Below, one piece after another: positions 3,082 to 21,565 of a DNA stretch of 64,000 bases; position 1 is the stretch's first letter; the number at the start of each line of letters is the position of its first letter. The position numbers and the translations under genes were made by a program. The DNA is from Elusimicrobia bacterium HGW-Elusimicrobia-3 (GTDB taxonomy: Bacteria; Elusimicrobiota; Elusimicrobia; Elusimicrobiales; UBA9959), in NCBI GenBank assembly GCA_002840355.1, contig PHAL01000006.1, positions 3,303 to 67,302 of the forward strand. The letters are read 5' to 3'. Below the pieces are notes generated by a model. It searched no databases. It had not been told where the DNA came from and worked only from the letters and a program-made list of their open reading frames with translations.

Positions 3082-4428
3082 ATGAAGCTTATACTTTCAA
3101 CCCTTATAATACTGTCCGCGCCGGCCCTGGCGCTGGCACAGGCGGAGCTCTCCCTGGAGGAAGCCGTAAACCGGGCGCTCAAGACCGATAATATAGTTCA
3201 GACCGAGGCCGACCGCGTGAGCGGGGCCCGGGCCGGCCTGCGTCAGGCCCGGATGAGCCGCCTGGGCGGCCTGAAGCTTAAAGGCATGTACACGGACGGC
3301 AATGACCCCGTTTACGCTTTCGCCACCGCCATGAAGCAGGGCACCTTCGGCATGGCCTCCCTGGCCACCATAAACGATCCCGACCCGGCCCGCAACTATA
3401 TGGCGGGCATAGAGGCCGGAATACCCCTTTTCACCGGTTTCGCCCTGTCCAACGCGGCCAAGATGGGCAATCTGGGGGTAGAAGCGGCCAGCAGCGGCTA
3501 TGAGCGGGCCCGGGCCGGCATAACCTTCAAGACCACCTACCAGTGGCTGACCGTGGCCCTGCGCGAGCGCCTGGCCGGCCTGGCGGCCGACAGCATAAAG
3601 GCGGCCGAAGAGGAGCTGAAGACGGCCCAGATGTTGAAGGACAAGGGCATGGTGCTGGGCTCGGACTATTTCGGCGCCGAGGCCATACTTTCAACCCTTA
3701 AGGGTTACCAGATCAATTGGGACAGCGCCCTGAGGCTGGAGCGCGAGAAGCTCGGCATAGCCGTGGGCCTGCCCGGCGGCGCCGGCGCGGCCGGCGCGCT
3801 GATAGACCCCGGTTACGGCGTCCTGGACCGCGGCGCCCTGGCCTCGGCCGCCTCCGGCCGCCGCGATGTGCGCGCGCTGGAAAAGCTGGCCGAGATCTCC
3901 AAGGTATCGGTTTCGATGCAGAAGAATTCGGTGCTGCCGGTGGTGGAAGCCTTCGGCGCCTGGGAGACCAATTCCGAAAGCCTGTCCGAATTCAGGGACA
4001 ACCGGCTGCTGGGCATACGCCTGACCATGCCGATAGGCGACCCAGCCTGGTTCGCCAGGCGCGACGGGGCCAAGGCCGAGGCCGCCATGGCGGACGGCCG
4101 GGTACAGGAAGCGCGCCGCCAGGCCTCTATAGAGCTGGCCGAGGCCCTCAGCAACTACGCCGCGGCCAGGGACGGCCTGCCGGTGGCGCAGGAGACCGTG
4201 GACAAGGCCAGGAAATCGCTGGAGCTGTTCCGCCCCCTCTACCGCCAGGGCCGCCAGAGCGTGCTGGAGGTGCTGCGCGCCCAGGCCTCGCTGCTGCAGG
4301 CCGAGGCCGGCTACTATGAGACCCTTTATAAGCTGAACCTCTACCGGGCCCAGGCCCTGCTGGCCTCCGAAACCCTGGACGCCGCCGCGGTTAAAGAACT
4401 GTCTGACAAATTGGGGGCAGAGAATTGA
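3082..4428 (+). CDS. TolC-family outer-membrane efflux protein
   Basis: 448 aa with signal peptide MKLILSTLIILSAPALALAQA. Two-repeat coiled-coil/beta-barrel OEP-like sequence (LSLEEAVNRAL..., LYRQGRQSVLEVLRAQ...). AAGGAG RBS. Confidence 0.85.
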   Translation: MKLILSTLIILSAPALALAQAELSLEEAVNRALKTDNIVQTEADRVSGARAGLRQARMSRLGGLKLKGMYTDGNDPVYAFATAMKQGTFGMASLATINDPDPARNYMAGIEAGIPLFTGFALSNAAKMGNLGVEAASSGYERARAGITFKTTYQWLTVALRERLAGLAADSIKAAEEELKTAQMLKDKGMVLGSDYFGAEAILSTLKGYQINWDSALRLEREKLGIAVGLPGGAGAAGALIDPGYGVLDRGALASAASGRRDVRALEKLAEISKVSVSMQKNSVLPVVEAFGAWETNSESLSEFRDNRLLGIRLTMPIGDPAWFARRDGAKAEAAMADGRVQEARRQASIELAEALSNYAAARDGLPVAQETVDKARKSLELFRPLYRQGRQSVLEVLRAQASLLQAEAGYYETLYKLNLYRAQALLASETLDAAAVKELSDKLGAEN

Positions 4429-4446
4429 AGACTGAAGCCGGCAGGC

Positions 4447-4574
4447 GGTCCGGCCAGGGCACGCCTTCTCCGGGTACGTTCGGCCACACCGTGGCCTCAC
4501 TCTTTCGCTTCGGTTCGGCGCTGCGCAAGCCTCACCTACGCGAGGCCCCTACGAAGGCATACCCTGTCCTGACC
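4447..4574. repeat. ~128 bp intergenic element with imperfect terminal inverted repeats (copy B; reverse orientation relative to copy A at 25061..25191)
   Basis: Ends ggtccggccagggcacgcc / ggcataccctgtcctgacc pair at 15 of 19 positions. The core shares blocks with the reverse complement of 25061..25191: ggccacaccgtggcc, tcactc, tcggcgct[g/a]cgcaagcctc and gagg(g)ccc. Confidence 0.6.
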
Positions 4575-4625
4575 GAGAAGAGCTGCTCAGAATATATTCA
4601 AAGCGGTAAGTTCTAGGAGTCCACA

Positions 4626-7600
4626 ATGCAGAACACTGAACACAAATACGGGATGGCGGGCAAAATGGCGGAGAGCTTTATCGGCTCGCGCCTGACGCCC
4701 ATACTGATAATCACCTTCATACTCCTGGGCGTCTTCTCCACGTTCAAGCTGCCGCGCGAAGAAGAGCCGCAGATCAACGTGCCCATGTTCGATATCATGG
4801 TGCCGTTCTACGGCGCCGCGCCCAACGAGATAGAGAAGCACCTGGTAGAGGTGGGCGAGCGCAAGCTCTGGGAGATCCCCGGCGTGGAATACATCTATTC
4901 CATAGCGCAGCCCAACTTCGCCATGTTCACCGTGCGCTTCAAGGTGGGCACCGCCCCCGAAGCCGCGGCCAATCTGGTCTACACCAAGACGCTCGACAAC
5001 AAGGATATCTTCCCGCGCGGCTCGGGCGAGCCGCTGATCAAATACCGCGCCATCGACGACGTGCCGGTGCTGGCCCTCACGCTGTGGGGCGAGGGCAAGG
5101 ACGGCTATGCCCTGCGGCGGGCCGCCGCGCGCATACAGACCGAGATCAACTCCGTCTCCAACGTCTCCGAGACGCGCATAATAGGCGGCCACAAGCGCCA
5201 GTTCATCGTGCACTTCGACCCGGCCTCCATAGCCCGCCACCGCCTGACGCCGCCCATGCTGGCCGGCATCATCAAGATGTCCAACGCCACGCTGCCGGCC
5301 GGCCACTACAACAAGGGCGACACCCGCCTGCTGGCCGAGACCGACGCCTTCATCCGCAGCGCCGACGACCTGCGCAACATCGTGGTGGGCGTCTACGACG
5401 GGCGGCCCGTGAAGCTCTCCGAGGTGGCCAAGATCACGGACGGCCCCGACGAGGAGGAGCGCTCCGTCACCATGCTGCAGGGCCCGGCCTCGGCCGCGAA
5501 GGCCGCCGCCGCCTCGCCCGCCGTCACCCTCTCCGTGGCCAAGCGCCGCGGCGCCAACGCCACCGAGGTCTCGCGCGAGGTCCTGGCCAAGGTGGAATCG
5601 ATGAAGGGCCGCGAGATCCCCGACGGCATCAGCGTCACCGTCACGCGCAACTACGGCGAGACGGCCAAGGCCAAGAGCGACGAGCTGATCTACCACATGC
5701 TGCTGGCCACGCTCTCCGTCACCCTGCTGATAGCGCTGACCCTGGGCCTGCGCGAGGCGGCCGTGGTGCTGGTGGCCATCCCCGTCACGCTGGCGCTGAC
5801 CATGCTGGTCTATTATCTCTACGGCTATACCCTCAACCGCATCACCCTGTTCGCCCTGATCTTCTCCATCGGCATCTTGGTCGACGACGCCATCGTGGTG
5901 GTGGAGAATATCAACCGCCACTGCGTGCTCAACAGGAAGAATTCCCTGTACCGCAATATCCTCAACGCCGTGGACGAAGTGGGCAACCCGACGATACTAG
6001 CCACCTGGACGGTCATCGCCTCCATCCTGCCGATGGCCTTCGTCAGCGGCATGATGGGCCCGTACATGCGCCCCATCCCCATAGGCGCTTCGGTGGCCAT
6101 GCTGTTCTCGCTGGGGGTGGCCTTCGCCTTCGCGCCCTGGCTGTACGCCCGCGTGGTGGAGAAGTGGCCGGTCAAGCATTGCCATAACGAGCGCGAGGGC
6201 TTCCTGGACCGGATGTACCGCGGCCTGATGAAGAAGCTCATCTACACGCCGGCCAACGGCAAGAAATTCCTGTGGTTCACCACCGGGCTGCTGGCGGTGG
6301 TGCTGGCCATGGTGGCCTTCAGGCTGGTCATTTTCAAGACCCTGCCCTTCGACAACAAGAACGAGTTCCAGGTGATCATCAATATGCCCGAGAGCTCTTC
6401 GCTGCAGCGCACCGAGCGCGCCGCCGGCGAAATGGCCGCCTATCTGGCCGGGGTGCCAGAGGTGCGCGACCTGCAGGTGTACGCCGGCGCCAGCGCACCG
6501 TACAACTTCAACGGCCTTGTGCGGCATTATTTCCTGCGCCGCGAGCCCTACCAGGCCGACATACAGGTGAACCTCTCCGACAAGCACGACCGCAAGCGCC
6601 AGAGCCACGACATAGCCGTGGCCGTGCGCCCGCCGCTCAAGGCCATCGCCGACAAGTACGGCGCCAGGCTGCAGGTGGCCGAGGTGCCGCCGGGCCCGCC
6701 CGTGATGGCCACCCTGCTGGTGGAGGTCTTCGACCCCAACCCCAAGAACCAGCGCGCGCTGGCCGAGCAGATAAAGAACATACTCCGGAACACCGAGGGG
6801 ATAGTCGACGTCGACTCCTACATCCCCGAGGACCAGCCCATCACCCGGCTGCTGGTGGACCGCCAGAAGGCCACCCTTAACGGCGTGGCGGCCGCCGACA
6901 TCGTGCAGACCGCGGCCCTCTCCCTCAACGGCGCCGATATAGACTCGGCCCACGTGGACGACGAGAACGAGGCCGTGGACATACGCCTGCGCCTCTCGCC
7001 GGAGAAGCGCCGCGAGCTGAACACGCTCAAGGAGATCAAGTTCTTCTCGCCCAACGGCACGGCCATCCCCATGGCCAGCTTCGTGCGGGCCGAGGCCGGC
7101 CTGGAGAACCGGCCCATCTACCGCAAGAACCTGCAGCGCGTGGCCTACGTCACCGCCGACATAGCCGGCGGCACCGAGAGCCCGGTCTACGCCGTGCTGG
7201 ACCTGAAGAAGAAGATAGACGAACTCTCCCGCGCCCGCGGGGCCGAGGTGAAGCAGTACTTCACCCGCCAGCCCGTCAGCAATTCCGAGACGGCCATCAA
7301 GTGGGACGGCGAGTGGCATATCACCTACGAGGTGTTCCGGGACCTGGGCCTGGCCTTCGCGATGGTGCTGGTGCTCATCTACATCCTCGTCGTGGCCTGG
7401 TTCGAGGACTTCCTGACGCCGTTCATCATCATGGCCGCCATACCGATGGCGCTGATAGGCATCATCCCGGCCCACTGGGGCATGGGGGCCTTCTTCACCG
7501 CCACGTCCATGATAGGCTTCATAGCCTCGGCGGGCATCGTGGTGCGCAACTCCATCATCCTCGTCGACTTCATCAACCTGAAGGTGCGCGAGGGCATGGA

Positions 7601-7880
7601 ACTCAAGGAAGCCGTGATAGAGGCCGGCGTGGTGAGGTTCAGGCCGATGCTGCTGACCGCGCTGGCGGTCATAGTGGGCGCCGGGGTCATACTCTTCGAC
7701 CCCATCTTCCAGGGCCTGGCCATCTCGCTGATAGCCGGCCAGATAGCCGCCACCCTGCTCAGCCGCGTAGCCGTGCCGGTGCTCTACTACCTGGCCTTCA
7801 AGGACAAGGAATACAAATTAAAGCCCGCCGCGCCCGCGCCCGAACTGCGCGAGGACCTGCTCGGCGCCACCGGAGAATAA
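4626..7880 (+). CDS. RND efflux transporter permease (AcrB/CzcA superfamily)
   Basis: 1084 aa. The N-terminus is typical of RND permeases (AESFIGSRLTPILIITFILLGVFS..LPREEEPQI). 12-TM architecture with two large periplasmic loops. AGGAG RBS. Confidence 0.9.
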   Translation: MQNTEHKYGMAGKMAESFIGSRLTPILIITFILLGVFSTFKLPREEEPQINVPMFDIMVPFYGAAPNEIEKHLVEVGERKLWEIPGVEYIYSIAQPNFAMFTVRFKVGTAPEAAANLVYTKTLDNKDIFPRGSGEPLIKYRAIDDVPVLALTLWGEGKDGYALRRAAARIQTEINSVSNVSETRIIGGHKRQFIVHFDPASIARHRLTPPMLAGIIKMSNATLPAGHYNKGDTRLLAETDAFIRSADDLRNIVVGVYDGRPVKLSEVAKITDGPDEEERSVTMLQGPASAAKAAAASPAVTLSVAKRRGANATEVSREVLAKVESMKGREIPDGISVTVTRNYGETAKAKSDELIYHMLLATLSVTLLIALTLGLREAAVVLVAIPVTLALTMLVYYLYGYTLNRITLFALIFSIGILVDDAIVVVENINRHCVLNRKNSLYRNILNAVDEVGNPTILATWTVIASILPMAFVSGMMGPYMRPIPIGASVAMLFSLGVAFAFAPWLYARVVEKWPVKHCHNEREGFLDRMYRGLMKKLIYTPANGKKFLWFTTGLLAVVLAMVAFRLVIFKTLPFDNKNEFQVIINMPESSSLQRTERAAGEMAAYLAGVPEVRDLQVYAGASAPYNFNGLVRHYFLRREPYQADIQVNLSDKHDRKRQSHDIAVAVRPPLKAIADKYGARLQVAEVPPGPPVMATLLVEVFDPNPKNQRALAEQIKNILRNTEGIVDVDSYIPEDQPITRLLVDRQKATLNGVAAADIVQTAALSLNGADIDSAHVDDENEAVDIRLRLSPEKRRELNTLKEIKFFSPNGTAIPMASFVRAEAGLENRPIYRKNLQRVAYVTADIAGGTESPVYAVLDLKKKIDELSRARGAEVKQYFTRQPVSNSETAIKWDGEWHITYEVFRDLGLAFAMVLVLIYILVVAWFEDFLTPFIIMAAIPMALIGIIPAHWGMGAFFTATSMIGFIASAGIVVRNSIILVDFINLKVREGMELKEAVIEAGVVRFRPMLLTALAVIVGAGVILFDPIFQGLAISLIAGQIAATLLSRVAVPVLYYLAFKDKEYKLKPAAPAPELREDLLGATGE

Positions 7881-7890
7881 GGAGAATTAA

Positions 7891-8079
7891 ATGAAACTTA
7901 ATGACGCGTTGAGGTTACTGGCGGGGACGATGGTGCTGCTCAGCGTTGCGCTGGCCGTTTACGCCGACCCGCGGTGGTACTGGCTGACGGTTTTCGTCGG
8001 CCTGAACCTGCTTCAGTCGGCCTTCACAAAGTGGTGCCCGGCCATCTGGTTCTTCAGGAAACTCGGTTTGCAGGAATAG
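7891..8079 (+). CDS. small membrane protein, DUF2892/YgaP-like
   Basis: 62 aa with two hydrophobic helices and the motif LLQSAFTKWCP typical of DUF2892. AAGGAG RBS 10 nt after the RND stop. Confidence 0.55.
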   Translation: MKLNDALRLLAGTMVLLSVALAVYADPRWYWLTVFVGLNLLQSAFTKWCPAIWFFRKLGLQE

Positions 8080-9994: not shown

Positions 9995-11305
9995 TCAATG
10001 GAACAGGCTGGTCCGCGAAGAGGAGGGAGGCCCTGGCCGCGCCAGGGCAAGCCTGGCCCGCCATTCGTCTATAAGGCCGCACAGTTTATCGCGCGACACG
10101 TTCATTCCCAAATACAAAGCGGGGCTGCCGCCCCCGGCGAACAGCGACCAGTCCATCGAGTCGCCCACCAGGCCCCTTTCTTTGGCCTGGTCCCAGGTTT
10201 TCGTGCCGGGGTAGGGGGCCAGCATGGCCCAATAGGCGTCCCTTATTTTCCCGGCTTCGGCATTGCGGCAGATCTTCTCCAGAGTGGAGTTTATATCTTC
10301 GGCGGTTTCCACCGGCACACCGAACATCAGCAAGGCCAGCACGCCTATGCCCCGGCCGGCCAGCAGGTCCAGAGCGCGCTGGTTTATTTCGCCGCTCAGC
10401 CCGGTCTTGTTCAGAAAGGCCAGCACCTTGTCGCTGAAGCTCTCCAACCCTATAGCCACCTGGTCCATCCCGATGCGGGCTAGCAGGCGGCAGGTTTCCT
10501 CGTCGATCAGGTCGGCCCGCACGGACCCTGAAAAACGGCATTTTCCCGTTAGTCCTCTCTCCTCCAGCCCGGCGGCTATGGCGGACAGGCGGCGCTTGTC
10601 GGCTATGAAAAGATCGTCGTAGAAAACAATTCTTTCGGCCCCTTCCCCCAGGACCAGGCGTTCTATCTCCTCGACCACGAGCCCGGCGGGGAGGGCGCGG
10701 TGGCGCGAGAACAAACGGGAAGAAGAGCAGAAGTCGCAGCGGTAGGGGCAGCCCCTGGCGGAAAAGATGTGGCGCAGCCTTTTACCCCGGTAGTAGGGGG
10801 CCATTTCGCCGCTGGGAAGGGGAAGCTGCGCCAGATCGGCGACGGGTTCGCGCTCCGGGGTCGAATGCAAACGGCCGTCCCGGTAAAAAGCCAGCCCGGG
10901 AACTCCGGCCAGATCGGAGTGATCAAAACGGGAATGCCGCATATAGGACCGCAGCGCTTCCACCAGCGTGAGCTCGCCTTCACCTATCACGGCCAGGTCG
11001 AAACATTTATCCAGAGAACCGGGCGCCATGGAAATGTGTATGCCGCCCAGTATCACCGGCACGCCCAGCTCGGCTTTGATGCTTTTCGCCCATTTTACGG
11101 CGAGGGCGTAGTTATCCGTATTGGCGCTGATCCCTACCAGGCCGGGGGCTTCTTTCAACAGCTGTTCCGGCCTTTCAGCCAGCACCACCTCCGTTCCGGG
11201 CAGGGATCTGTTTATGCTGGCCGCCAGAAAGCCAGGGCCGAGAGGAGGCAGGGAGGTCAGGTCCCCCTCCGCCGCCACTATCAGCCCTATTTTAAGTGTT
11301 TTCAT
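9995..11305 (-). CDS. B12-binding-domain radical SAM enzyme (class B)
   Basis: N-terminal Rossmann-like B12-binding region (KIGLIVAAEG...VPVILGGIHIS) followed by the CxxxCxxC motif ARGCPYRCDFCSS. Start chosen at MKTLKIG (11305) rather than the ORF-track 11338. Confidence 0.8.
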   Translation of the reverse strand: MKTLKIGLIVAAEGDLTSLPPLGPGFLAASINRSLPGTEVVLAERPEQLLKEAPGLVGISANTDNYALAVKWAKSIKAELGVPVILGGIHISMAPGSLDKCFDLAVIGEGELTLVEALRSYMRHSRFDHSDLAGVPGLAFYRDGRLHSTPEREPVADLAQLPLPSGEMAPYYRGKRLRHIFSARGCPYRCDFCSSSRLFSRHRALPAGLVVEEIERLVLGEGAERIVFYDDLFIADKRRLSAIAAGLEERGLTGKCRFSGSVRADLIDEETCRLLARIGMDQVAIGLESFSDKVLAFLNKTGLSGEINQRALDLLAGRGIGVLALLMFGVPVETAEDINSTLEKICRNAEAGKIRDAYWAMLAPYPGTKTWDQAKERGLVGDSMDWSLFAGGGSPALYLGMNVSRDKLCGLIDEWRARLALARPGPPSSSRTSLFH

Positions 11306-11373
11306 TTTCCTGTAACGCCCGGGAATACCGCAGGCCACGGAAATTCTACCTTAAACCCCCGCGCCGCCGGCGC

Positions 11374-11739
11374 TCAGTGGCAGCCGTGCCCCTGGCAGCA
11401 GTCGGTGGCCAGCATCTCCGGAAGTTCGCGCTTCTTGAACAGCTCTATGGCCTGGGCCAGCGGGCCCTGCGGGGCGCGGAAAACCTTTATACCGCCGGCG
11501 TTCAGGTGCTGCAGCGCGCGGGCGCCTATGCCGCCCACCAGTATGCCGCTCACGGCCTTGCCGGTTAGCGCGCCGAGGGGATTGCATTGCCCGTGCTCGT
11601 GGTGCTGGTTGCCGTTGTCGATGAATTCCACCTTGCCGCCTTCCACGTCGCAGATCGCGAAGAAGGGGGCGCTGCCGAAATGGCCGTACACCCTGGACTT
11701 CAGGCCGTCGTTGTTCTCCACCGGTACGCAGATGTTCAT
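11374..11739 (-). CDS. NifB/NifX-type (dinitrogenase FeMo-cofactor-binding-like) domain protein
   Basis: 121 aa. MNICVPVENNDGLKSRVYGHFGSAPFFAICD... and ILVGGIGARALQHLNAGGIKVF match the NifX/NifB C-terminal fold family. Cys/His-rich tail CCQGHGCH. 4-nt overlap with the DUF134 gene. Confidence 0.7.
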   Translation of the reverse strand: MNICVPVENNDGLKSRVYGHFGSAPFFAICDVEGGKVEFIDNGNQHHEHGQCNPLGALTGKAVSGILVGGIGARALQHLNAGGIKVFRAPQGPLAQAIELFKKRELPEMLATDCCQGHGCH

Positions 11740-12056
11740 TTATGTTCTCCTTTACCGGGCGGCCGGCGCAGTTCCACCGGCCCCCCTTCTATCTTCACGG
11801 CCTTGCCGTGCACCACGGCGTCGGCCAGCTTCCGCCTGGCGGAAGCGAGTATGTTGCCGAAGGTCTGCCTCGAGACCTTCATGGCCGCGGCCCCGGAGGC
11901 CTGGTCCCCGCGCTTTACGTCGGCGTGCTCCAGGGCCTGCAGCTCGTCGAGCTGCAGCGTCACTTCCTCCAGCTCGCAAAGCGGCACGGCCCGCGGCTTG
12001 AAATAATAGGCGCGGGGTTCGGCGGTCACTTTCCTGCATTTAATGGGACGCGTCAT
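11736..12056 (-). CDS. DUF134 (UPF0251) family putative DNA-binding protein
   Basis: MTRPIKCRKV..YFKP..V..EEVTLQLDELQALEHAD...AAAMKVSRQTFGNILASARRKLADAV is the characteristic DUF134 pattern (sigma-70 region-4-like HTH). Confidence 0.7.
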   Translation of the reverse strand: MTRPIKCRKVTAEPRAYYFKPRAVPLCELEEVTLQLDELQALEHADVKRGDQASGAAAMKVSRQTFGNILASARRKLADAVVHGKAVKIEGGPVELRRPPGKGEHK

Positions 12057-12086
12057 AGGTTACTGGCATATGCCAATAACCATATA

Positions 12087-13742
12087 CTAACAAGTCGGGC
12101 GGGGCAAGTCAACAGCGGGGCGGATCGCGGCCAGCGCCGCGGCGGGGGAGGTCTCTCCGGTTTTCCAGACGGCGGCGGGTTTAATGCGCCAGCGCGCTAT
12201 CATTTTATCCAGCAGGTAGTCCCTGACCACCAGGACCACGGGCGCCCCGTTCTCCCCCAGCAGGTTCTCCAGCTGGGGGGCCCAGCCGCCGCCTTTCAGT
12301 TCCAGGAAGCCTATCTCGTCGACAAAGACCGCGTCGCAGGAAGCCGTCTTCTCCGGGGAGAGAGCGCAGCGCCCGGCGGCCAGTCCCGCCGTGAAAAAGC
12401 GGAATTCTCCGGCGCGTATTTCTCCGCCCGGCTCCCGGCGGCACAGCGGCGTGCTGGCGCCGGAGCTAAGGTCCAGCAGGTCGAAGCCGGAACGCGTCCT
12501 TCCCTCCCAGCAGCCTTTTGCGATTATACCCGCAGGTTTCTGCCCGCCGGCGCGGATCAGGCCGGCCAGCGCGGCGGCCAGCGTACTCTTGCCGCTGCCG
12601 TGCCCGCCGGTTATGATGAAAACCCGGCGGCGCGGCCGTTCCAGCAGGCAGGGCGCCCGGGAGATTATGGCGCGCAACGAGGCCGCCGGCCGCAGCAGCA
12701 TATCCCTGCCGGACGGCAGCGAGCCCAGCACCAGCGGCAGCGTGGCGAAAGCGTACTCCAGCGTCTCGAAAAAGGCCGGTCCCGCCCGGAGCTCCAGCGC
12801 GCGGCGCACCCGCGGGTTCAGCAGTTCCTGCGCTACCGCGGCAAAGCCCAGCGTCAGCGCGAAAGCCCGGACCGCCATGCGCAGGCCGGAACCCCAGTCG
12901 CCCAGCAGCCAGCCGGCCAGCAGCGAAACCGCCGCTATGCCCGTCCACAGGCCGGCTTTAGCCAGCAGCGCGGCCGAGCGGCGGTAATAGCGGGCGCAGA
13001 CGCAGCCGTAAACCAGGGACAGGCCCAAAAACGCCGGCAGCGGCAGCCGGCCGGAAACCATCAGGCCGGCTACGGCAGCCAGGTGCAGGAGCAGAAAAAA
13101 AGCCGAGTAGTAGCCGGCGGCGCCGCCGCCCCGCGGGAACAGTTCCGCGCCGCCGGAGCGCAGCGGCACCAGCTCGCCGTCGGCCGCCGCCCGCAGGCCC
13201 AGCAGCGCGGCGGCAAAGCCGGCCAGGAAATAGGCGGCCAGTACCGCCAGCAGCGGCGCCCACAACCCGCCAGGTTGCCCCAGACAGGCCCGCAGCTTTT
13301 CCAGACCTTTAACATACAGCGCCAGCGAGTCAGGCCCGTAGAAGAGGTAAAGCTTTCCGATCTTATGGATAAGGCCCCAGCTCATGGCCAGGCCGCCGGC
13401 GAGCAGGTATCCGGCAAGATTGCCGCCCAGCAGCCGTACGGCCGCCTCGGCCAGCAGGCCCTCCGCGAAGATCGCCACCATGGGACTGAGCAGCACGGCG
13501 CTGGGCGAGACCGATTTCATGGCGGCGCAGATCAGGCCGGCGCGCCACAACAGGCCCCGCTCCGGCCAGAGGCGGTGGCCGGCTACCAGTATAGCTATCC
13601 CTATGCCGGTCAGCAGCAGCCCGGCGAAAGGGATATGGGCGTTCTTCAGGAAACTGCCCAGCAAGATCTCAGACGCGGCCCAGAGGCTGCCGAGCACGGC
13701 AGCCTTGCGCCAGAGCAGAGCTCCACAAGCGGGTAGGTTCAT
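12087..13742 (-). CDS. fusion protein: ~9-10 TM membrane domain + C-terminal THEP1/DUF2478-like P-loop NTPase
   Basis: The N-terminal ~330 aa are strongly hydrophobic with multiple TM segments. The C-terminal ~200 aa carry Walker A (ITGGHGSGKST) and Walker B (VFVDEIGFLELKG), as in THEP1-type NTPases. Confidence 0.6.
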   Translation of the reverse strand: MNLPACGALLWRKAAVLGSLWAASEILLGSFLKNAHIPFAGLLLTGIGIAILVAGHRLWPERGLLWRAGLICAAMKSVSPSAVLLSPMVAIFAEGLLAEAAVRLLGGNLAGYLLAGGLAMSWGLIHKIGKLYLFYGPDSLALYVKGLEKLRACLGQPGGLWAPLLAVLAAYFLAGFAAALLGLRAAADGELVPLRSGGAELFPRGGGAAGYYSAFFLLLHLAAVAGLMVSGRLPLPAFLGLSLVYGCVCARYYRRSAALLAKAGLWTGIAAVSLLAGWLLGDWGSGLRMAVRAFALTLGFAAVAQELLNPRVRRALELRAGPAFFETLEYAFATLPLVLGSLPSGRDMLLRPAASLRAIISRAPCLLERPRRRVFIITGGHGSGKSTLAAALAGLIRAGGQKPAGIIAKGCWEGRTRSGFDLLDLSSGASTPLCRREPGGEIRAGEFRFFTAGLAAGRCALSPEKTASCDAVFVDEIGFLELKGGGWAPQLENLLGENGAPVVLVVRDYLLDKMIARWRIKPAAVWKTGETSPAAALAAIRPAVDLPRPTC

Positions 13743-13782
13743 TGGTCCGGATGGTTCACGTAGTCCGCGCCTTCGAGCGCGG

Positions 13783-14199
13783 TCAGAGGGGCGCTATTAT
13801 GGAGAAGGAGCCGTGGGTGACGCCTTTGAGGGCTCGCAGGGCGTCCGCCAGGCGCTGCAGCCTTGCCGGGCGGCCGGTGAGGGTGACGGTGCAGAGAACT
13901 TTTCCGCCGCGCAGCTGGTGTACCTGCGAAGACAGCGCGCACTTGGAGTTGGCGCGCAGCAGCTTCTCCAGCCCGCGCCCCGGGCGGCCGTCGGAGGGAT
14001 CGTAGACCACGGAGACGGTGGCGGCGCACTCGCGGCCGCCGCGCCAGTCCTTCCGGACTATAGCGCGGCGAATGAAGTCGGCCAGGGCCTGGGAGCGGCT
14101 GGGATAACCGCGCTCGGAGGAGATCTCGTCGAGACGGCCCAGCAGGCCCTTCTCCAGACAGACGGTAAAGCGGTCGAGGGAAGTTTTTCTCATATTCAT
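13783..14199 (-). CDS. NikR-family (ribbon-helix-helix + ACT-like) transcriptional regulator, divergent metal site
   Basis: N-terminal RHH region (RFTVCLEKGLLGRLDEISSERGYPSRSQALADFIRRAI) and a C-terminal domain ending GVTHGSFSIIAPL, like the NikR ending (GV.HG.L...P). The canonical HxH...C nickel ligands are not in register. Confidence 0.6.
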   Translation of the reverse strand: MNMRKTSLDRFTVCLEKGLLGRLDEISSERGYPSRSQALADFIRRAIVRKDWRGGRECAATVSVVYDPSDGRPGRGLEKLLRANSKCALSSQVHQLRGGKVLCTVTLTGRPARLQRLADALRALKGVTHGSFSIIAPL

Positions 14200-14243
14200 A
14201 CTATTCTACACAATAATATGAATAGCGGGCATGGCCAAGGCGT

Positions 14244-14274
14244 AAAAAGGGGGCCCCGGCTGCCCGGGGCCCCT
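14244..14274 (-). terminator. intrinsic terminator downstream of the peroxiredoxin gene
   Basis: On the minus strand: GGGGCCCCGG-gcag-CCGGGGCCCCC hairpin followed by TTTTT. Confidence 0.6.
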
Positions 14275-14292: not shown

Positions 14293-15045
14293 TTATTTCC
14301 GGTCTTTTTTGGGCTCGTCCTTGGGCAGCGGCTTGAAGCACATGAACCAGTCGTTGCAGTGGTAGCCGCCGGAGGTCTGGCTCTCCACCCTTTCCTTGGC
14401 GCCGCCGCAGGAACCGGGCGGAGGCACTATCACCTCGTCGCCGGGGCGCCAGTCGGCCGGGGTGGCCACCTTGTACTTGTCGGCGGTCTGCATGGCGATC
14501 AGCAGGCGCTTGATCTCGTCGAAGTTGCGCCCGTTGGACAGCGGGTAGTAGATGAGGGCGCGGATCTTGCCCGCGGGGTCCACAAAGAACACGGCGCGCA
14601 CGGCCTTGGTGTCGGAGGCGTTGGCTTGCACCATGCCGTACTTCTTGGCCACGTCCATTTTTATGTCCGCTATCAGCGGGAACGTGACCTCCATGTTCTT
14701 CATGTCCTTGTACTGGATCTTCTCCTTGATGGTGCGCAGCCAGGCAACGTGGCTGTAGATGCTGTCGATGGACAGCCCTACCACCTCGGTGTTGAGCGCC
14801 TTGAACTCCGGCATCATCTTAGCGAAGGTCATGAACTCCGTGGTGCAGACGGGCGTGAAGTCAGCCGGGTGGCTGAACAGGATGGCCCATTTACCCTTGT
14901 AGTCCGCAGGGAAGTTTATGGTCCCCTGGGTGGTTTCGGCCGTAAAGGCCGGGGCGTCGTCGCCGATAAGCGGCACGCCCTCCGCGAACAGCGGCTGAGC
15001 AGCGAACACTGCCGCGAGCAGCGGCAGTACTATCAGTTTTTTCAT
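14293..15045 (-). CDS. peroxiredoxin (Prx6/archaeal-type AhpC/TSA family) with N-terminal signal peptide
   Basis: Peroxidatic Cys motif HPADFTPVCTTE. C-terminal Cys-containing extension (GSCGG...HCNDWFMCF). Start at MKKLIVLPLLAAVFAAQPLFA (15045) has a GGGGGAG RBS. The ORF-track start at 15093 lacks one. Confidence 0.85.
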   Translation of the reverse strand: MKKLIVLPLLAAVFAAQPLFAEGVPLIGDDAPAFTAETTQGTINFPADYKGKWAILFSHPADFTPVCTTEFMTFAKMMPEFKALNTEVVGLSIDSIYSHVAWLRTIKEKIQYKDMKNMEVTFPLIADIKMDVAKKYGMVQANASDTKAVRAVFFVDPAGKIRALIYYPLSNGRNFDEIKRLLIAMQTADKYKVATPADWRPGDEVIVPPPGSCGGAKERVESQTSGGYHCNDWFMCFKPLPKDEPKKDRK

Positions 15046-15160
15046 TTTTCTCCCCCTTATTGGCGCCTGGAGCGCCCAAAAACCACTATACAAACTTTTC
15101 AGGTTTTCCCGCCGCAGTTCTTATACATGCGGCAAAGCGAAAGGTTTACTGGCCGGAGGG

Positions 15161-16027
15161 TTAAAAGGGCAGGGTAAGCCCCAGCGATAGATAATCGCTC
15201 CTTGACGCGCCGCCGCCCGGATTAAAATTCTCCCAGCCGGCGGAGAGCTCGGCCGCGGACAGTTTCACGCTCAACCCAACCGCAAAACTTTCGGAAGAAG
15301 GCTGGTCCAGCAGGTAATTGGTGCGGGAGTAGCCTGCCTCCGGCACCACGGGCAGGCCGGGCACGCGCAGGCGCGCGGAAACAGCCGTATCGGGGAAACC
15401 GCTGGTGCCTATGCCGCCTATGTCCAACGGCAGTTCCCTGTTCTCGGCGGTAATATCCTCGCTGTAGGCCGTCTTGGTGAAGCGGCCGCTGGCCCGCACG
15501 CCGAAAAACTTAACGCCGGCGGTAAAGCCGTAGTCGGTCTGGTTAAGTCTGAAGGCGTCGGTAAGGGCAGCTACGGAGGCGCCGCGCCGGCCCACGGACA
15601 CGGTGGCGGTAGAGGCGGCGTAAAGGTCCTCGTGCATGGTAAGCCCGGCAAAGGCCCCGAGAGAAGCGTCCTGAAACAACGCGGCTTCGTCCGGGGCCGG
15701 CAGCAGGTTGTAGGTGAAGTCCGCGTATAAGCCCTGATTCTGGTACCCGCCTGTTTCGGGGGTCAGGGAAACTTCCCCGCCAAGGCTCCAGCGATCCCGG
15801 TCCAGGCCGGCGCCAAAAGAGTAAGTGGAGAACCTGTCGGCCAGGTCGCTCGCGTAGGTATTAAGGGAAGGGCGCAGATAATATTCGTCGTTGCCCCATT
15901 CGGCGAAAGCGCTGACCCCGCCGTAACCGTCCGGTCCCGCGGTATATTTGGCCCCTATGTCCGTATAGGCCGGGGCCGAAACGGCCGCGCATAAAAAAAA
16001 CAAGGCCGATAAGATCAGTCTTTTCAT
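15161..16027 (-). CDS. putative outer-membrane beta-barrel protein
   Basis: Signal peptide MKRLILSALFFLCAAVSAPA, alternating beta-strand pattern, aromatic C-terminus LGLTLPF. GGGGAG RBS. Confidence 0.55.
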   Translation of the reverse strand: MKRLILSALFFLCAAVSAPAYTDIGAKYTAGPDGYGGVSAFAEWGNDEYYLRPSLNTYASDLADRFSTYSFGAGLDRDRWSLGGEVSLTPETGGYQNQGLYADFTYNLLPAPDEAALFQDASLGAFAGLTMHEDLYAASTATVSVGRRGASVAALTDAFRLNQTDYGFTAGVKFFGVRASGRFTKTAYSEDITAENRELPLDIGGIGTSGFPDTAVSARLRVPGLPVVPEAGYSRTNYLLDQPSSESFAVGLSVKLSAAELSAGWENFNPGGGASRSDYLSLGLTLPF

Positions 16028-16078: not shown

Positions 16079-16630
16079 TTAACGGCCGCGCTTGCCGCCG
16101 CCATTGCCGCCGCGGCTCTGGCGCTTTTCGGAACGCAGCTCCTTGCGGTCCTCCCTGCGCTCCTTGCGCTGTTCCTTAATTTCCTTCTTCTCCTGCTTGC
16201 GCTCCTGCTTCTTCAGGGCTTTCTCGCCCTTCTCGCCGGCTTTTTCGGCCTTCTTCAGGGCTTTCTCCTCCCCGGCGTTCTCGGCGCGCTCGCGCACGGT
16301 CTCGCCCTTGCCCTTGTCTTCGCCGCTCCTGGCGCGGGTCTGCTCTTTAACCTGCTCCTTGTCGCCGGTCTCTTCTCCGGCTTTTTCCTCGTTCAGGCGG
16401 GCCTGCTCGCGGGTTTGTATGCCTTCACCGTCAGTCAGGCGCTCCTGATCGCGTACCTGGTCCCGCGTCTGCAGTTTGTCCTGGACTTTCAGCTTGTCCT
16501 GGGTCTGCAGCTGCTCCCGGGTCCGCAGTTGGTCCTGCTCTTTAACCGCGTCCTCGGCATTTACGGCTGCCGTAGCGAAAAACACGGAAACCAGGCCGAG
16601 GGCGGCTACTGCTATTATCTTGGTGTTCAT
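16079..16630 (-). CDS. exported low-complexity K/E/R/Q-rich protein
   Basis: Signal/anchor MNTKIIAVAALGLVSVFFATAAVNA, then degenerate repeats (EQLQTQDKLKVQDKLQTRDQVRDQERL; KALKKAEKAGEKGEKALKKQERKQEKKE). Strong AAGGAGGAG RBS. Confidence 0.5.
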   Translation of the reverse strand: MNTKIIAVAALGLVSVFFATAAVNAEDAVKEQDQLRTREQLQTQDKLKVQDKLQTRDQVRDQERLTDGEGIQTREQARLNEEKAGEETGDKEQVKEQTRARSGEDKGKGETVRERAENAGEEKALKKAEKAGEKGEKALKKQERKQEKKEIKEQRKERREDRKELRSEKRQSRGGNGGGKRGR

Positions 16631-19615: not shown

Positions 19616-20167
19616 TTATATGAACAGCGAAGACTTGCTGCTGCCGGCCTCGGCCAGGAACTTGCCCACGCCGGCGCTCTTGAGATTCGGGTAGTCCACC
19701 ATCTCCTCCATCTTGTAGCCCATCAGGTCCATGCTCATCTGGCAGACGTAGATCTGCACGCCGGAGTCGGCGGCGGTCTTCATCAGCTGCTCCAGGCTCA
19801 TCACGTTGTGCTTCTTCATGATGGACTTGATCATGGCCTTGCCCATGCCGCCCATGTTCATCTGGCTGAGCTTGGTGCCGGCCGCCCCGTTGGGCAGCAT
19901 CAGCTCGAACATCTTGGAGACCGTGTCCTTGGAGACGGTCTTCTTCGGGTCCTTCAGGGCCGGGATGGACCAGAAGGTGAAGAACATGACCACCTTCTCG
20001 AACATGGCCGCGGCGCCAGTGGCGATGATGAAAGAAGCGAGGAGTTTATCCATGTCGCCGCTCATCACCACCATCGAGAGCTTGTCCTCGGGCGCGTTGG
20101 CCTTCAATGTTTCCACGTCGGCCTTGAGGGCCGCTACCTGCGCTTCCAGTTCCTTGATTTCCGCCAT
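19616..20167 (-). CDS. DsrE/DsrF-like (DrsE_2, COG2210-type) sulfur-carrier-like protein with N-terminal coiled-coil
   Basis: KLSMVVMSGDMDKLLASFIIATGAAAM and the conserved-Cys context IYVCQMSMDLMG are typical of the DsrE_2 family. The N-terminal ~25 aa are heptad-like (IKELEAQVAALKADVETLK). Confidence 0.65.
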   Translation of the reverse strand: MAEIKELEAQVAALKADVETLKANAPEDKLSMVVMSGDMDKLLASFIIATGAAAMFEKVVMFFTFWSIPALKDPKKTVSKDTVSKMFELMLPNGAAGTKLSQMNMGGMGKAMIKSIMKKHNVMSLEQLMKTAADSGVQIYVCQMSMDLMGYKMEEMVDYPNLKSAGVGKFLAEAGSSKSSLFI

Positions 20168-20176
20168 ATTGTCTCC

Positions 20177-21271
20177 TTATTTGCCTAAAGAAAGCGTGAA
20201 AGCCGTGCCGGCCTCAGCCTCTTTTTTAACGTGCTGAAAATAGACAGCTAGCGGCCTGAAGAAGATGTGTATCCACTTGGTGAACGGCACGATGAGCAGT
20301 ATCCACACCGTCTCTATGGCGATGTTGAAGCGGTACACCTTGGCGAGCAGCGGGTCCCCTGGGCCGTAGGCCACGTTGAGGTAATGGGTGAACAGCAGGC
20401 TCGCGCCGATCAGGAACATCGTCACCACGAACAGCCAGTCGCTCGGGTGCGAGAACTTGGAGGATTCCGCGCTCTTGAACATGCGCCGCAGCGACATGAT
20501 GCCGCCGCCGACGAGGATGGCCAGGCCGGCGTACCAGACCAGCAGGCTCACCGGGCCGAAGGCGCCGTAATGATCGTCCAGCGGCGACAGCAAATGCAGG
20601 TTGGAGATCAGCAGCGTCAGCACATAGCCGCTCATGACCAGCAAATGCGCTATCCAGCGGGTCCAGTCCGTCTCCTCGCAGCCGTTGAAGTTCTTCTGCG
20701 TGAAGCCGTGCACCAGGGTCTCGTAAATGTGCGCGGGCTTGAGCGAGGCCTTTATGCCGCCCAGCGGTTTCACTATCACGTGGCGGTACATGTTGACGAT
20801 ATAGCCGCCCAGCGCTATGGTGACATAGACCGGGAAGGCCAGCTCTATTTTCCCGGCGAGCGCGCCGAAGTCGCCCGTATAGGAGGCGTACAGCCAGTAG
20901 AAAGCCGCCAGCATGCCCAGGGCCAGCCAGGTCTGCAGCCAGCCGTTCTTGTAAAAGATTTTAGAGAGACCGGTGATATCGTATTTGGCGATGAGATAGC
21001 GGCGCAGGGTCATCATGTACTCGCCGGGCTGGGCCTCGCGCGGGCAGGTGGACGAGCACTCGCCGCAATAGTAGCAATGCCAGGGCTCGATGGCGGAGTT
21101 TATTTTCTCCTCCATGCCCACGTGGCCGGCGCGTATCAGCTTGCGCGGAAAGGAGGCGTCCTCTTTGGACAGCGGGCAGACCGCCGTGCAGTTGCCGCAG
21201 TTAAAGCAGGCGGAGATGTCGAAAGCGCCGTACTTTTTTATCTCGTCTATGAGTTCCGGGTTCACCTTCAT
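20177..21271 (-). CDS. QmoC-like subunit: HdrC-like 2x[4Fe-4S] domain fused to HdrE/NarI-like multi-TM (heme b-type) domain
   Basis: CFNCGNCTAVCP and CYYCGECSSTCP motifs in the first ~90 aa, then ~6 TM helices with conserved-looking His residues (MYRHVIV, WIAHLLVMSGY, LFTHYLN, KWIHIFFRP). Confidence 0.75.
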   Translation of the reverse strand: MKVNPELIDEIKKYGAFDISACFNCGNCTAVCPLSKEDASFPRKLIRAGHVGMEEKINSAIEPWHCYYCGECSSTCPREAQPGEYMMTLRRYLIAKYDITGLSKIFYKNGWLQTWLALGMLAAFYWLYASYTGDFGALAGKIELAFPVYVTIALGGYIVNMYRHVIVKPLGGIKASLKPAHIYETLVHGFTQKNFNGCEETDWTRWIAHLLVMSGYVLTLLISNLHLLSPLDDHYGAFGPVSLLVWYAGLAILVGGGIMSLRRMFKSAESSKFSHPSDWLFVVTMFLIGASLLFTHYLNVAYGPGDPLLAKVYRFNIAIETVWILLIVPFTKWIHIFFRPLAVYFQHVKKEAEAGTAFTLSLGK

Positions 21272-21564
21272 TATTTAGCCTCCCCGGCCTTCAGCTCGTA
21301 CTTGGGCCAGTCGCCGCGGCCGGGCACGTCGGAGATCTTGCCGTACTTGCGCAGGCCGGCCACGTACCAGATGGCCAGGTCGTGGGGCAGGCCGGCCGCG
21401 GCCGCCAGCTCGGGCGCCGTCTTGGGCCCCTCTTTCAGAGCGTCGAGGATGGCTTTCTGCGCCTTGTTCTGCGCGGCCACCCGGTCGCGCAGTTCCTGCG
21501 GCACGGGGCCGCGGAGCTCGTTGAGTCTTTTCAGCTGTTCGGCGAGTTTTTTTGCGTCGGCCAT
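21271..21564 (-). CDS. small hypothetical protein (possible winged-helix fold), Cys-free
   Basis: 97 aa, tightly coupled on both sides (1-nt gap upstream, 1-nt overlap downstream). The segment APELAAAAGLPHDLAIWYVAGLRKYGKI resembles a wHTH recognition region. Confidence 0.4.
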   Translation of the reverse strand: MADAKKLAEQLKRLNELRGPVPQELRDRVAAQNKAQKAILDALKEGPKTAPELAAAAGLPHDLAIWYVAGLRKYGKISDVPGRGDWPKYELKAGEAK

Positions 21565-21565
21565 A

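Follow-up and report, generated by a model that had tools for sequence, protein, structure and literature searches.

The region examined here, positions 9,995–14,199 of a 64,000-nucleotide stretch (hereafter the window) of contig PHAL01000006.1 from Elusimicrobia bacterium HGW-Elusimicrobia-3, encodes a NikR-like regulator and, directly behind it, a polytopic membrane protein fused to a P-loop NTPase, which together could form the core of a metal-uptake operon whose inner-membrane importer would be of a new kind. Five co-directional open reading frames (ORFs), all on the minus strand, make up the run: the NikR-like regulator (13,783–14,199; ribbon-helix-helix plus NikR_C, Pfam E-value 1.2e-9), the 551-residue membrane::NTPase protein (12,087–13,742), a small predicted DNA-binding protein of the DUF134 family (11,736–12,056; PF02001, 5.2e-19), a NifX/ORP/IssA-type protein with a Nitro_FeMo-Co domain (11,374–11,739; PF02579, 2.3e-21), and a class B (B12-binding) radical S-adenosylmethionine (rSAM) enzyme with B12-binding and Radical_SAM domains (9,995–11,305 from an ATG, or 9,995–11,338 from a GTG). 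The second of these divides into a membrane domain of residues 1–368 (12,639–13,742), a proposed permease of an unnamed family with approximately ten transmembrane helices in its AlphaFold model, and a THEP1/NTPCR-type P-loop NTPase domain of residues 374–545 (12,108–12,623; PF03266, 1.5e-17). Domain calls were judged against Pfam gathering scores and subfamily calls against NCBIfam equivalog cutoffs, and every domain named in an earlier note on this DNA scored above its gathering threshold: NikR_C (PF08753) at 38.7 bits versus 22, NTPase_1 (PF03266, residues 375–515) at 64.4 versus 23.9, DUF134 at 69.1 versus 27, Nitro_FeMo-Co at 76.3 versus 26.3, Radical_SAM (PF04055) at 74.6 versus 29.5, and B12-binding (PF02310) at 37 versus 32.1.

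Along this run, the intergenic gaps are 40, 30, −4 (an ATGA overlap between the DUF134 and nifX-like genes), and 68 nt, the last figure assuming that the rSAM gene starts at the ATG at 11,305, which has AGGA ahead of it. These re-measured ORFs and gaps agree with the earlier note, which had described five co-directional genes separated by at most 68 nt with one 4-nt overlap. The frames are backed as coding by GC contents of 0.73–0.88 at third codon positions (GC3) versus 0.41–0.54 at second positions (GC2); ORFs were chosen by a GC3–GC2 score, which avoids antisense shadow ORFs. Base composition and the strongest database matches assign the window to Elusimicrobia (MAGs of Elusimicrobiales). 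The 5′ boundary of the unit is the intrinsic terminator of an upstream secreted peroxiredoxin gene (14,250–14,273, minus strand), already noted as preceding the cluster, with a perfect 10-bp all-GC stem and a T-run (GGGGCCCCGG-GCAG-CCGGGGCCCC then CTTTTT). Inside this boundary, and overlapping the start of the regulator gene, lies a candidate operator, TTCATA-N16-TATGAA (14,195–14,222; a dyad without assigned strand).

The region was compared with 65 genome loci and 80 metagenome loci encoding relatives of the membrane::NTPase protein, of which 128 were scorable after removal of duplicates; they were collected by pattern-seeded searches and do not sample the family at random, and many are short metagenome contigs, so that all neighbor counts are lower bounds. 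In the close clade, the gene order is outer-membrane protein (OMP)-like, secreted peroxiredoxin, NikR-like, a 670-residue TonB-dependent receptor with Plug and barrel domains (Pfam), membrane::NTPase, DUF134, and NifX-like, with thioesterase, Fur-family, NifU-like, and MinD/Mrp-Fer4 genes further downstream in relatives. The receptor-less arrangement of the window is also found in relatives (L006, L012, L027, and L030 among others), and the DUF134–NifX pair, which the note had called recurrent, does recur among the loci compared, with the same overlap; in the literature searched, we found no description of this pair beside genes for a NikR paralogue and a membrane::NTPase protein. The five-gene metal or cofactor module put forward earlier is therefore retained in part: the NikR-like, membrane::NTPase, DUF134, and NifX-like genes recur together, and the rSAM gene is not a member. 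We thus propose that the real unit would be a four-gene, self-repressed operon of nikR-like, membrane::NTPase, DUF134, and nifX-like genes with the rSAM gene outside it, a picture of an uptake operon that we consider, taken as a whole, slightly less probable than an even chance.

The exclusion of the rSAM gene follows from several features. No counterpart stands beside the other four genes in any of the 65 genome and 80 metagenome loci, and the gene forms a cluster of size one among them, its sole tblastn match being 31% identical and 7 kb off in L031. It has the lowest GC3 of the stretch's genes (0.73) and its own promoter-like site, and its translation, in which the CxxxCxxC motif reads CPYRCDFC, belongs to no characterized class B subfamily among those scanned (BchE, ApyD, HpnJ, PhpK, and others), with ApyD scoring best at 114 bits versus a cutoff of 750, and BchE reaching 107 versus 481. 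The contexts of its orthologues of 59–67% identity are different and of three types: the orthologue follows a 62-residue YgaP-like gene and lies opposite HD, Znu, or DsrE2-Hdr-like genes, it follows UbiA and a flavoprotein, or it adjoins a SPASM-domain gene. A single pathway in which all five proteins methylate or modify a metal cofactor, the version raised by the earlier note, would fit their common direction, the mere 68 nt before the rSAM gene with no terminator between, and the report that, in natural-product clusters, a DUF364 enzyme and a B12-rSAM methylase act together (PMC12930334). The window, however, has no DUF364 gene, and since synteny largely refutes such a pathway, with the deviant GC3 and separate promoter-like site of the rSAM gene and the other neighbors of its orthologues all on the same side, we regard it as very improbable.

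Three further observations concern the rSAM family itself. Genes for YgaP-like transmembrane proteins of 62–63 residues lie directly ahead of rSAM orthologues in L066 (196–387) and L150 (338–526), and the window has its own YgaP-like gene (7,891–8,079, plus strand), 1.9 kb from the rSAM gene, on the other strand and beyond an ABC-F gene; from this arrangement, the YgaP-like protein may be the enzyme's real partner. In L067 (163–3,569), a 65% identical orthologue follows genes for a UbiA prenyltransferase and an FAD/NAD-binding oxidoreductase, a context suggestive of an isoprenoid or a quinone as the subfamily's substrate. DsrE2-Hdr-like genes flank the orthologue in L150, and the same genes are present in the window upstream of the unit, which shows local rearrangement between relatives.

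At the center of the unit is the membrane::NTPase protein, whose C-terminal domain is, by sequence, a true member of the THEP1/NTPCR family. It matches the Protein Data Bank (PDB) sequences 2i3b (1.9e-9) and 1ye8 (1.9e-6), is aligned to both by Foldseek with template-modeling (TM) scores of 0.64–0.66 (E-values of 4e-5 and 6.5e-5), and retains Walker A G379/G384/K385 and Walker B D475/E476 as invariant residues across 51 sequences. The AlphaFold models (predicted local distance difference test, pLDDT, 82–86; full-length pLDDT 86, predicted TM score 0.72) place approximately ten transmembrane helices within residues 1–340, followed by linker helices and the alpha/beta domain, and the distribution of Lys and Arg among the loops (positive-inside rule) predicts that both termini, hence the NTPase, would be cytoplasmic.

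Its membrane domain, on the other hand, is without recognizable kin among described families, as the earlier note had anticipated in finding that the fusion fit no transporter it recognized. Pfam searches at E ≤ 10, run with the entire domain, with its two halves separately, and with three homologues, returned nothing; the NCBIfam scan gave no match, and a profile search of the PDB gave P-loop matches only; and Foldseek searches with full-length and domain-only models found no PDB fold match for this domain (best E-value 1e-2, TM scores 0.15–0.2). The literature consulted on DUF2478, on THEP1 with molybdenum, and on TonB-dependent molybdate or tungstate uptake held no description of the family, so far as these searches reach, and by sequence and fold comparison the central protein is outside every described transporter family. 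An ECF-like pair of S and T components, or an internal duplication, was considered and rejected (hhalign of half versus half gave a probability <1%, and there was no ECF fold match). The family is nonetheless large: a membrane-domain profile retrieves 1,231 cluster representatives (50% identity) at E ≤ 1e-3 and 323 at E ≤ 1e-30, most approximately 570 residues long (fused) and a minority approximately 390 (membrane only), with named members from Bacteroidales, Ignavibacteriales, and other phyla annotated only as “nucleoside-triphosphatase” or “hypothetical”. Across 33 diverse members, E25, N34, R67, K76, S79, P80, and M88, among others, are invariant, and H33, C72, M75, S81, E94, R292, and E306 nearly so; in the model, E25, N34, R67, K76, S79, and M88 are predicted to be polar positions within the membrane. 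Membrane-only versions (approximately 375–390 residues) follow a NikR-like gene in L151 (7,399–8,526), L152 (7,412–8,542), L027, L030, and L042, and one metagenome-assembled genome (MAG), UBA9634, encodes a fused (L018) as well as an unfused (L042) family member, with znuA/znuB beside the unfused one.

The regulator is a NikR-family protein from end to end: residues 8–132 align to Pyrococcus horikoshii NikR in phmmer (4e-16), and the full length aligns to the NikR structures from P. horikoshii, Helicobacter pylori, and Escherichia coli. It falls under every NCBIfam NikR cutoff (best 68.2 bits versus 105 for NF003381; 54 versus 175 for TIGR02793), and in an alignment of E. coli and H. pylori NikR with at least 20 orthologues of the regulator, conservation is lost at all four nickel-ligand positions. 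The columns of E. coli H76′, H87, H89, and C95 hold, in the regulator and its orthologues, R, a gap or Q, a variable residue (H or N/L), and K/R, respectively, and one His is kept in approximately half of the orthologues. Canonical NikR paralogues that retain all four ligands (H, H, H, and C) are encoded in L002 (645–1,106), L003 (695–1,111), and L005 (1,005–1,421), some 5–7 kb upstream of the unit formed by the nickel-blind NikR-like, receptor, and membrane genes, and in L003 and L005 the box GTGTTAC-N13-ATGACAC, described as the delta-proteobacterial NikR signal (PMC545781), overlaps their start codons. Since the two paralogues have different boxes, two NikR-family regulators with distinct operators appear to coexist in one genome.

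Because all four ligands are lost, in the regulator and its orthologues alike, sequence argues that canonical-manner nickel sensing is unlikely, and the NikR-type metal sensing proposed in the note is not supported for the canonical nickel case. The same evidence bears on the idea of a nickel (or cobalt) uptake operon, in which a NikR orthologue would sense nickel and repress a TonB-dependent nickel importer as in H. pylori. Full-length membership of the NikR family and the NikR-type geometry of the operator (28 bp, N16, TCATA/TATGA half-sites) would suit this idea, as would the known NikR control of TonB-dependent receptors in H. pylori. Against it stand the absence of any conserved high-affinity nickel ligand in at least 20 orthologues, the four-ligand paralogues with GTGTTAC-type boxes in the same genomes, the scores below every NikR equivalog cutoff, and the lack of hydrogenase, urease, or carbon monoxide dehydrogenase genes linked to the unit, and we judge it decidedly unlikely. 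The nickel-blind clade comprises 137 clusters at 58–100% identity, with named sequences all from Elusimicrobia and the pipeline label “nickel-responsive”, an annotation that would be wrong for the whole paralogue clade. In two further contigs picked from the regulator side, the next gene encodes the membrane protein in its NTPase-less form.

Upstream of 14,199, where the earlier note had proposed looking for a NikR-type operator, an inverted repeat was indeed found (14,195–14,222) and is conserved in at least 25 loci. Its arms extend to 13 nt (14,193–14,224) with 92% complementarity; TTCATA-N16-TATGAA has a single match in the window with up to two mismatches allowed, and 25 related loci carry the exact core TCATA-N16-TATGA, L012 with two copies and the others with one. 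Apart from their swapped order, the half-sites are identical to the ones in the enterobacterial NikR box, GTATGA-N16-TCATAC, and such a reversed orientation is documented for D. psychrophila (PMC545781). Within the dyad is a −10-like TAGAAT (14,208–14,203, minus strand), kept as TAnAAT in orthologous loci, and the ATG of the NikR-like gene falls in the dyad's right half-site, a start overlap also seen in the related loci inspected for it; with both elements inside the dyad, repression by occlusion would be the natural consequence of binding. TAGAAT ends 3 nt before the ATG at 14,199 and 9 nt before that at 14,193, which leaves a Shine-Dalgarno sequence no room (14,191–14,208), and the same geometry recurs in orthologous loci; the nikR-like mRNA is thus probably leaderless. 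In L004, which has a divergent receptor gene, a second copy of the dyad overlaps the receptor start, and in L082, L043, and L084 the dyad stands immediately ahead of the membrane gene, without an intervening regulator gene; from these placements we infer that the regulator's own gene belongs to the regulon, as do those for the receptor and the membrane protein. A one-mismatch copy also lies over the start of a 380-residue OMP-like gene preceding znuA-znuB in L012 (11,516–11,543), and the regulon may reach a Znu-type transporter in some genomes.

Beyond the close clade, the neighborhood of the membrane gene was scored across the 128 loci, with “adjacent” meaning within 300 nt on the same strand and a second count taken within 6 kb. 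For TonB-dependent receptor genes, the adjacent count is 27 loci and the 6-kb count 43, both obtained with a hidden Markov model built on the close clade that may miss divergent receptors. The corresponding figures are 23 (overlapping or abutting the membrane-gene start) and 25 for DUF364/DUF4213, 13 and 30 for NikR-like genes, 15 (downstream of the membrane gene) and 24 for DUF134, and 3 and 26 for NifX-like genes. Where at least 2.5 kb of upstream sequence was available (n = 93), 39 loci have a co-directional receptor or DUF364 gene, and 48 have either of these or a NikR-like gene. An unbiased Pfam scan of 132 upstream neighbor proteins, from loci without the regulator, ranks DUF364 first (16) and the receptor second (9), with no other family occurring more than four times. 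Receptor–membrane gene pairs are found in Desulfobacterota loci as well (L045 and L064), so the receptor link is not an accident of one clade, and in distant relatives DUF364 is directly upstream of, and translationally coupled to, the membrane gene. Together, these receptor and DUF364 neighbors point to uptake rather than cofactor modification.

DUF364, a family labeled “metal-chelation”, has been reported beside transporters for molybdenum, tungsten, vanadium, and iron, usually ABC systems (PMC2954201; bioRxiv 10.1101/2024.03.05.583561), and cofitness with nitrogenase is reported for a modABC-DUF364 operon (bioRxiv 10.1101/2024.03.05.583561); the one characterized DUF364 enzyme cyclizes methyl-SAM to an azetidine amino acid (PMC12930334). 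By analogy with these systems, the membrane protein occupies the transporter's place beside DUF364. It could instead be a membrane sensor, signaling NTPase, or assembly factor that lies next to uptake genes, as its lack of fold or sequence likeness to any transporter, the weak resemblance of its NTPase domain to the P-loop N-domain of the sensor KdpD (Foldseek rank 18), and the heterogeneous contexts of distant members might suggest. Such a role, though, would leave the ten transmembrane helices with their invariant charged or polar intramembrane residues, the coupling to DUF364, and the abutment on receptor genes in the position usual for an inner-membrane transporter to be accounted for, and the protein has no output domain; we therefore hold this alternative to be unlikely.

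The reading we favor, to which we assign a little under an even chance, is that sequence and gene order describe a repressor-controlled uptake operon whose inner-membrane component would be a new type of transporter. Sequence comparison establishes the anatomy of the genes, the lost nickel ligands, where the operator lies and how it is conserved, how large the family is, and the neighbor counts; transport and its direction, the substrate, the effector, and the part played by the NTPase are deduced from sequence, predicted structure, and gene order. A tetramer of the regulator would bind TTCATA-N16-TATGAA, covering the −10 element and its own start codon, and would silence the operon in the presence of its effector, which is presumably something other than nickel at the canonical site. 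Upon derepression, the polytopic membrane protein would import a scarce metal species through the inner membrane, after delivery to the periplasm, in most relatives, by the co-transcribed receptor, and the THEP1-type NTPase fused to it would energize or gate transport from the cytoplasmic side. Since natural NTPase-less versions exist, gating in the manner of FeoB would be as likely as pumping, and these versions favor gating or help in trans. In the cytoplasm, DUF134 and the NifX/ORP-like carrier could then handle the imported species or signal its presence.

As for the substrate, molybdenum or tungsten, as an oxyanion, a thio-anion, or a chelate, is our doubtful first suggestion. Genes for AOR, a Mo-bisPGD oxidoreductase, an enzyme of the xanthine dehydrogenase (XDH) family, or XdhC occur in 19 of the 128 loci, mostly within 3 kb, one of them (L073) with the order nikR-like, membrane::NTPase, XdhC, XDH, and the NifX-like partner is placed in the ORP/MrpORP family by a weak NCBIfam match to the C-terminal domain of MrpORP. 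A scan of the window and five loci at Rfam gathering thresholds detected no cobalamin or molybdenum cofactor riboswitch, the sole match being a tRNA-Sec. In L045, from a Desulfobacterota MAG, a tRNA-Sec (6,897–6,985) lies 2 kb downstream of the receptor–membrane::NTPase pair and beside a Mo-bisPGD oxidoreductase gene. Upstream of membrane-only copies in L053, L061, and L062 are genes that, on a reading of their sequences, look like those of purine catabolism, putatively adenosine-deaminase-like, OHCU decarboxylase-like, HIU hydrolase-like, and PuuD-like; in L053, genes for XDH and XdhC accompany them.

Iron or iron-sulfur acquisition and storage would be a different use of the same parts, with the receptor and permease importing iron species and the NifX-like protein acting like IssA, in thioferrate storage, with the NifU-like and MinD/Mrp-Fer4 neighbors. 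Related loci do contain Fur-family, NifU_N, MinD-Fer4, and extra downstream NifX-like genes, the receptor's best models are those of heme and siderophore receptors, and the NifX-domain protein IssA is reported to store iron-sulfur (PMC5524996). Yet the receptor scores far under the cutoffs of those families and has no heme-type His between its FRAP-like and NPNL-like boxes, the regulator is not Fur, and the DUF364 literature and the molybdenum and tungsten enzymes point elsewhere, all of which makes an iron system improbable. Across 31 receptor orthologues, there is no conserved Cys, His, or Met cluster.

Several observations weigh against the uptake operon we favor, or against its proposed substrate. 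The NTPase is absent from 13 of the 128 copies and from many database members, so NTP hydrolysis would not be essential to the function of the membrane domain, and that domain resembles no solved transporter. Approximately half of the loci with enough flank show no marker neighbor. The window itself has neither a TonB-dependent receptor nor a DUF364 gene in its 64 kb, and no methyltransferase, thioesterase, Fur, or NifU-like gene elsewhere in it. In several loci, an opposite-strand methyltransferase gene stands between the membrane gene and the DUF134 and nifX-like genes, which makes the latter two associated neighbors rather than obligate operon members. The receptor's best NCBIfam scores, all far below cutoff, are to heme and siderophore models; the occurrence of molybdenum and tungsten genes at 15% of loci is a lead, not a result; and genes for Fur/Zur, ZnuA/B, NifU-like proteins, and peroxiredoxin are found among the neighbors too, an indication of iron, zinc, or redox functions.

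At the system level, the proposed operon is familiar, combining metal uptake, a dyad operator, and a repressor from a metalloregulator family; what is new, as judged from sequence, is a central membrane family without described transporter relatives and a regulator that fails the NikR nickel-site test. In its most extended form, which we offer speculatively and with low confidence, the membrane domain would found an importer class with an optional THEP1 NTPase that, together with TonB-dependent receptors and DUF364, acquires molybdenum or tungsten, whether as such or in pterin or chelate form, in anaerobic diderms, and that in Elusimicrobia is controlled by a NikR paralogue re-tooled to a non-nickel signal. 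If the protein is the true partner of orphan TonB-dependent receptors, it would add a transporter class, in a family that spans Elusimicrobia, Desulfobacterota, Bacteroidales, and Ignavibacteria and has neither a domain model nor a structural precedent. The reading, if true, would also provide a first physiological context for THEP1/NTPCR NTPases, whose role is obscure even in humans, and suggest what DUF364 does beside transporters; should the substrate be molybdenum or tungsten, it would bear on metal acquisition by anaerobes in sulfidic groundwater. The NikR paralogue, in turn, offers a natural case in which DNA-binding geometry is retained and the metal site is lost.

The surroundings of the unit in the window include further genes of note. 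Upstream, the 1-Cys peroxiredoxin gene (14,293–15,093, minus strand) encodes an N-terminal segment resembling a signal peptide and is itself preceded by a gene for a 288-residue protein without a Pfam match, probably a beta-barrel OMP (15,161–16,027, minus strand); both are kept upstream of the unit in the close clade, and the terminator divides both from it. Beyond them lies a clade-conserved gene for a 183-residue secreted protein, mostly of Lys/Glu/Arg/Gln-rich low-complexity repeats and without a Pfam match (16,079–16,630, minus strand), and, further upstream, a cluster of DsrE2, 4Fe-4S, and HdrA-like flavoprotein genes (19,616–23,359, minus strand). Downstream of the unit, on the plus strand, are genes for a TolC-like OEP and an AcrB/CusA-type RND pump (3,082–7,880).

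Among known systems, a functional analogy to the membrane::NTPase protein is FeoB, likewise a polytopic permease fused to a small cytoplasmic P-loop NTPase in a metal-uptake context. Pfam and PDB searches gave no sign of homology between the two; the domain order is reversed, the NTPase is of the THEP1 class whereas that of FeoB is a TRAFAC GTPase, and FeoB is not TonB-linked. With THEP1 and human NTPCR, the protein shares a C-terminal 170 residues that are a bona fide member of PF03266, but known members are soluble, stand-alone enzymes, in contrast to the fusion with a 368-residue membrane domain seen here. TonB-dependent metal-uptake loci with an inner-membrane ABC transporter (for example, Cnt/pseudopaline, Znu/ZnuD, and Btu) are comparable in that the relatives of the unit have a repressor, a receptor, and an inner-membrane component in one operon; the unit differs in that its inner-membrane component, the membrane::NTPase protein, falls outside the ABC, MFS, and other known permeases, in that it lacks a periplasmic binding protein, and, in the window, in having no receptor. 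The DUF364 neighborhoods of modABC, tungstate, and vanadate systems likewise place DUF364 directly upstream of the proposed transport gene, the differences being that the partner in the relatives is the membrane::NTPase family rather than an ABC system and that the window is without DUF364. The ORP complex, IssA, and other NifX-domain carriers share the DUF134 and Nitro_FeMo-Co pair, which relatives of the unit extend with MinD/Mrp-Fer4 and NifU-like genes. Finally, the regulator has the two-domain architecture of NikR from E. coli, H. pylori, and P. horikoshii, aligning end to end with their structures, and is predicted to bind a comparable 28-bp dyad of TCATA/TATGA half-sites at 16-nt spacing over the promoter of an uptake operon; it differs in the replacement of all four square-planar nickel ligands, in half-sites reversed relative to the enterobacterial box, and in forming a distinct clade that coexists with canonical NikR.

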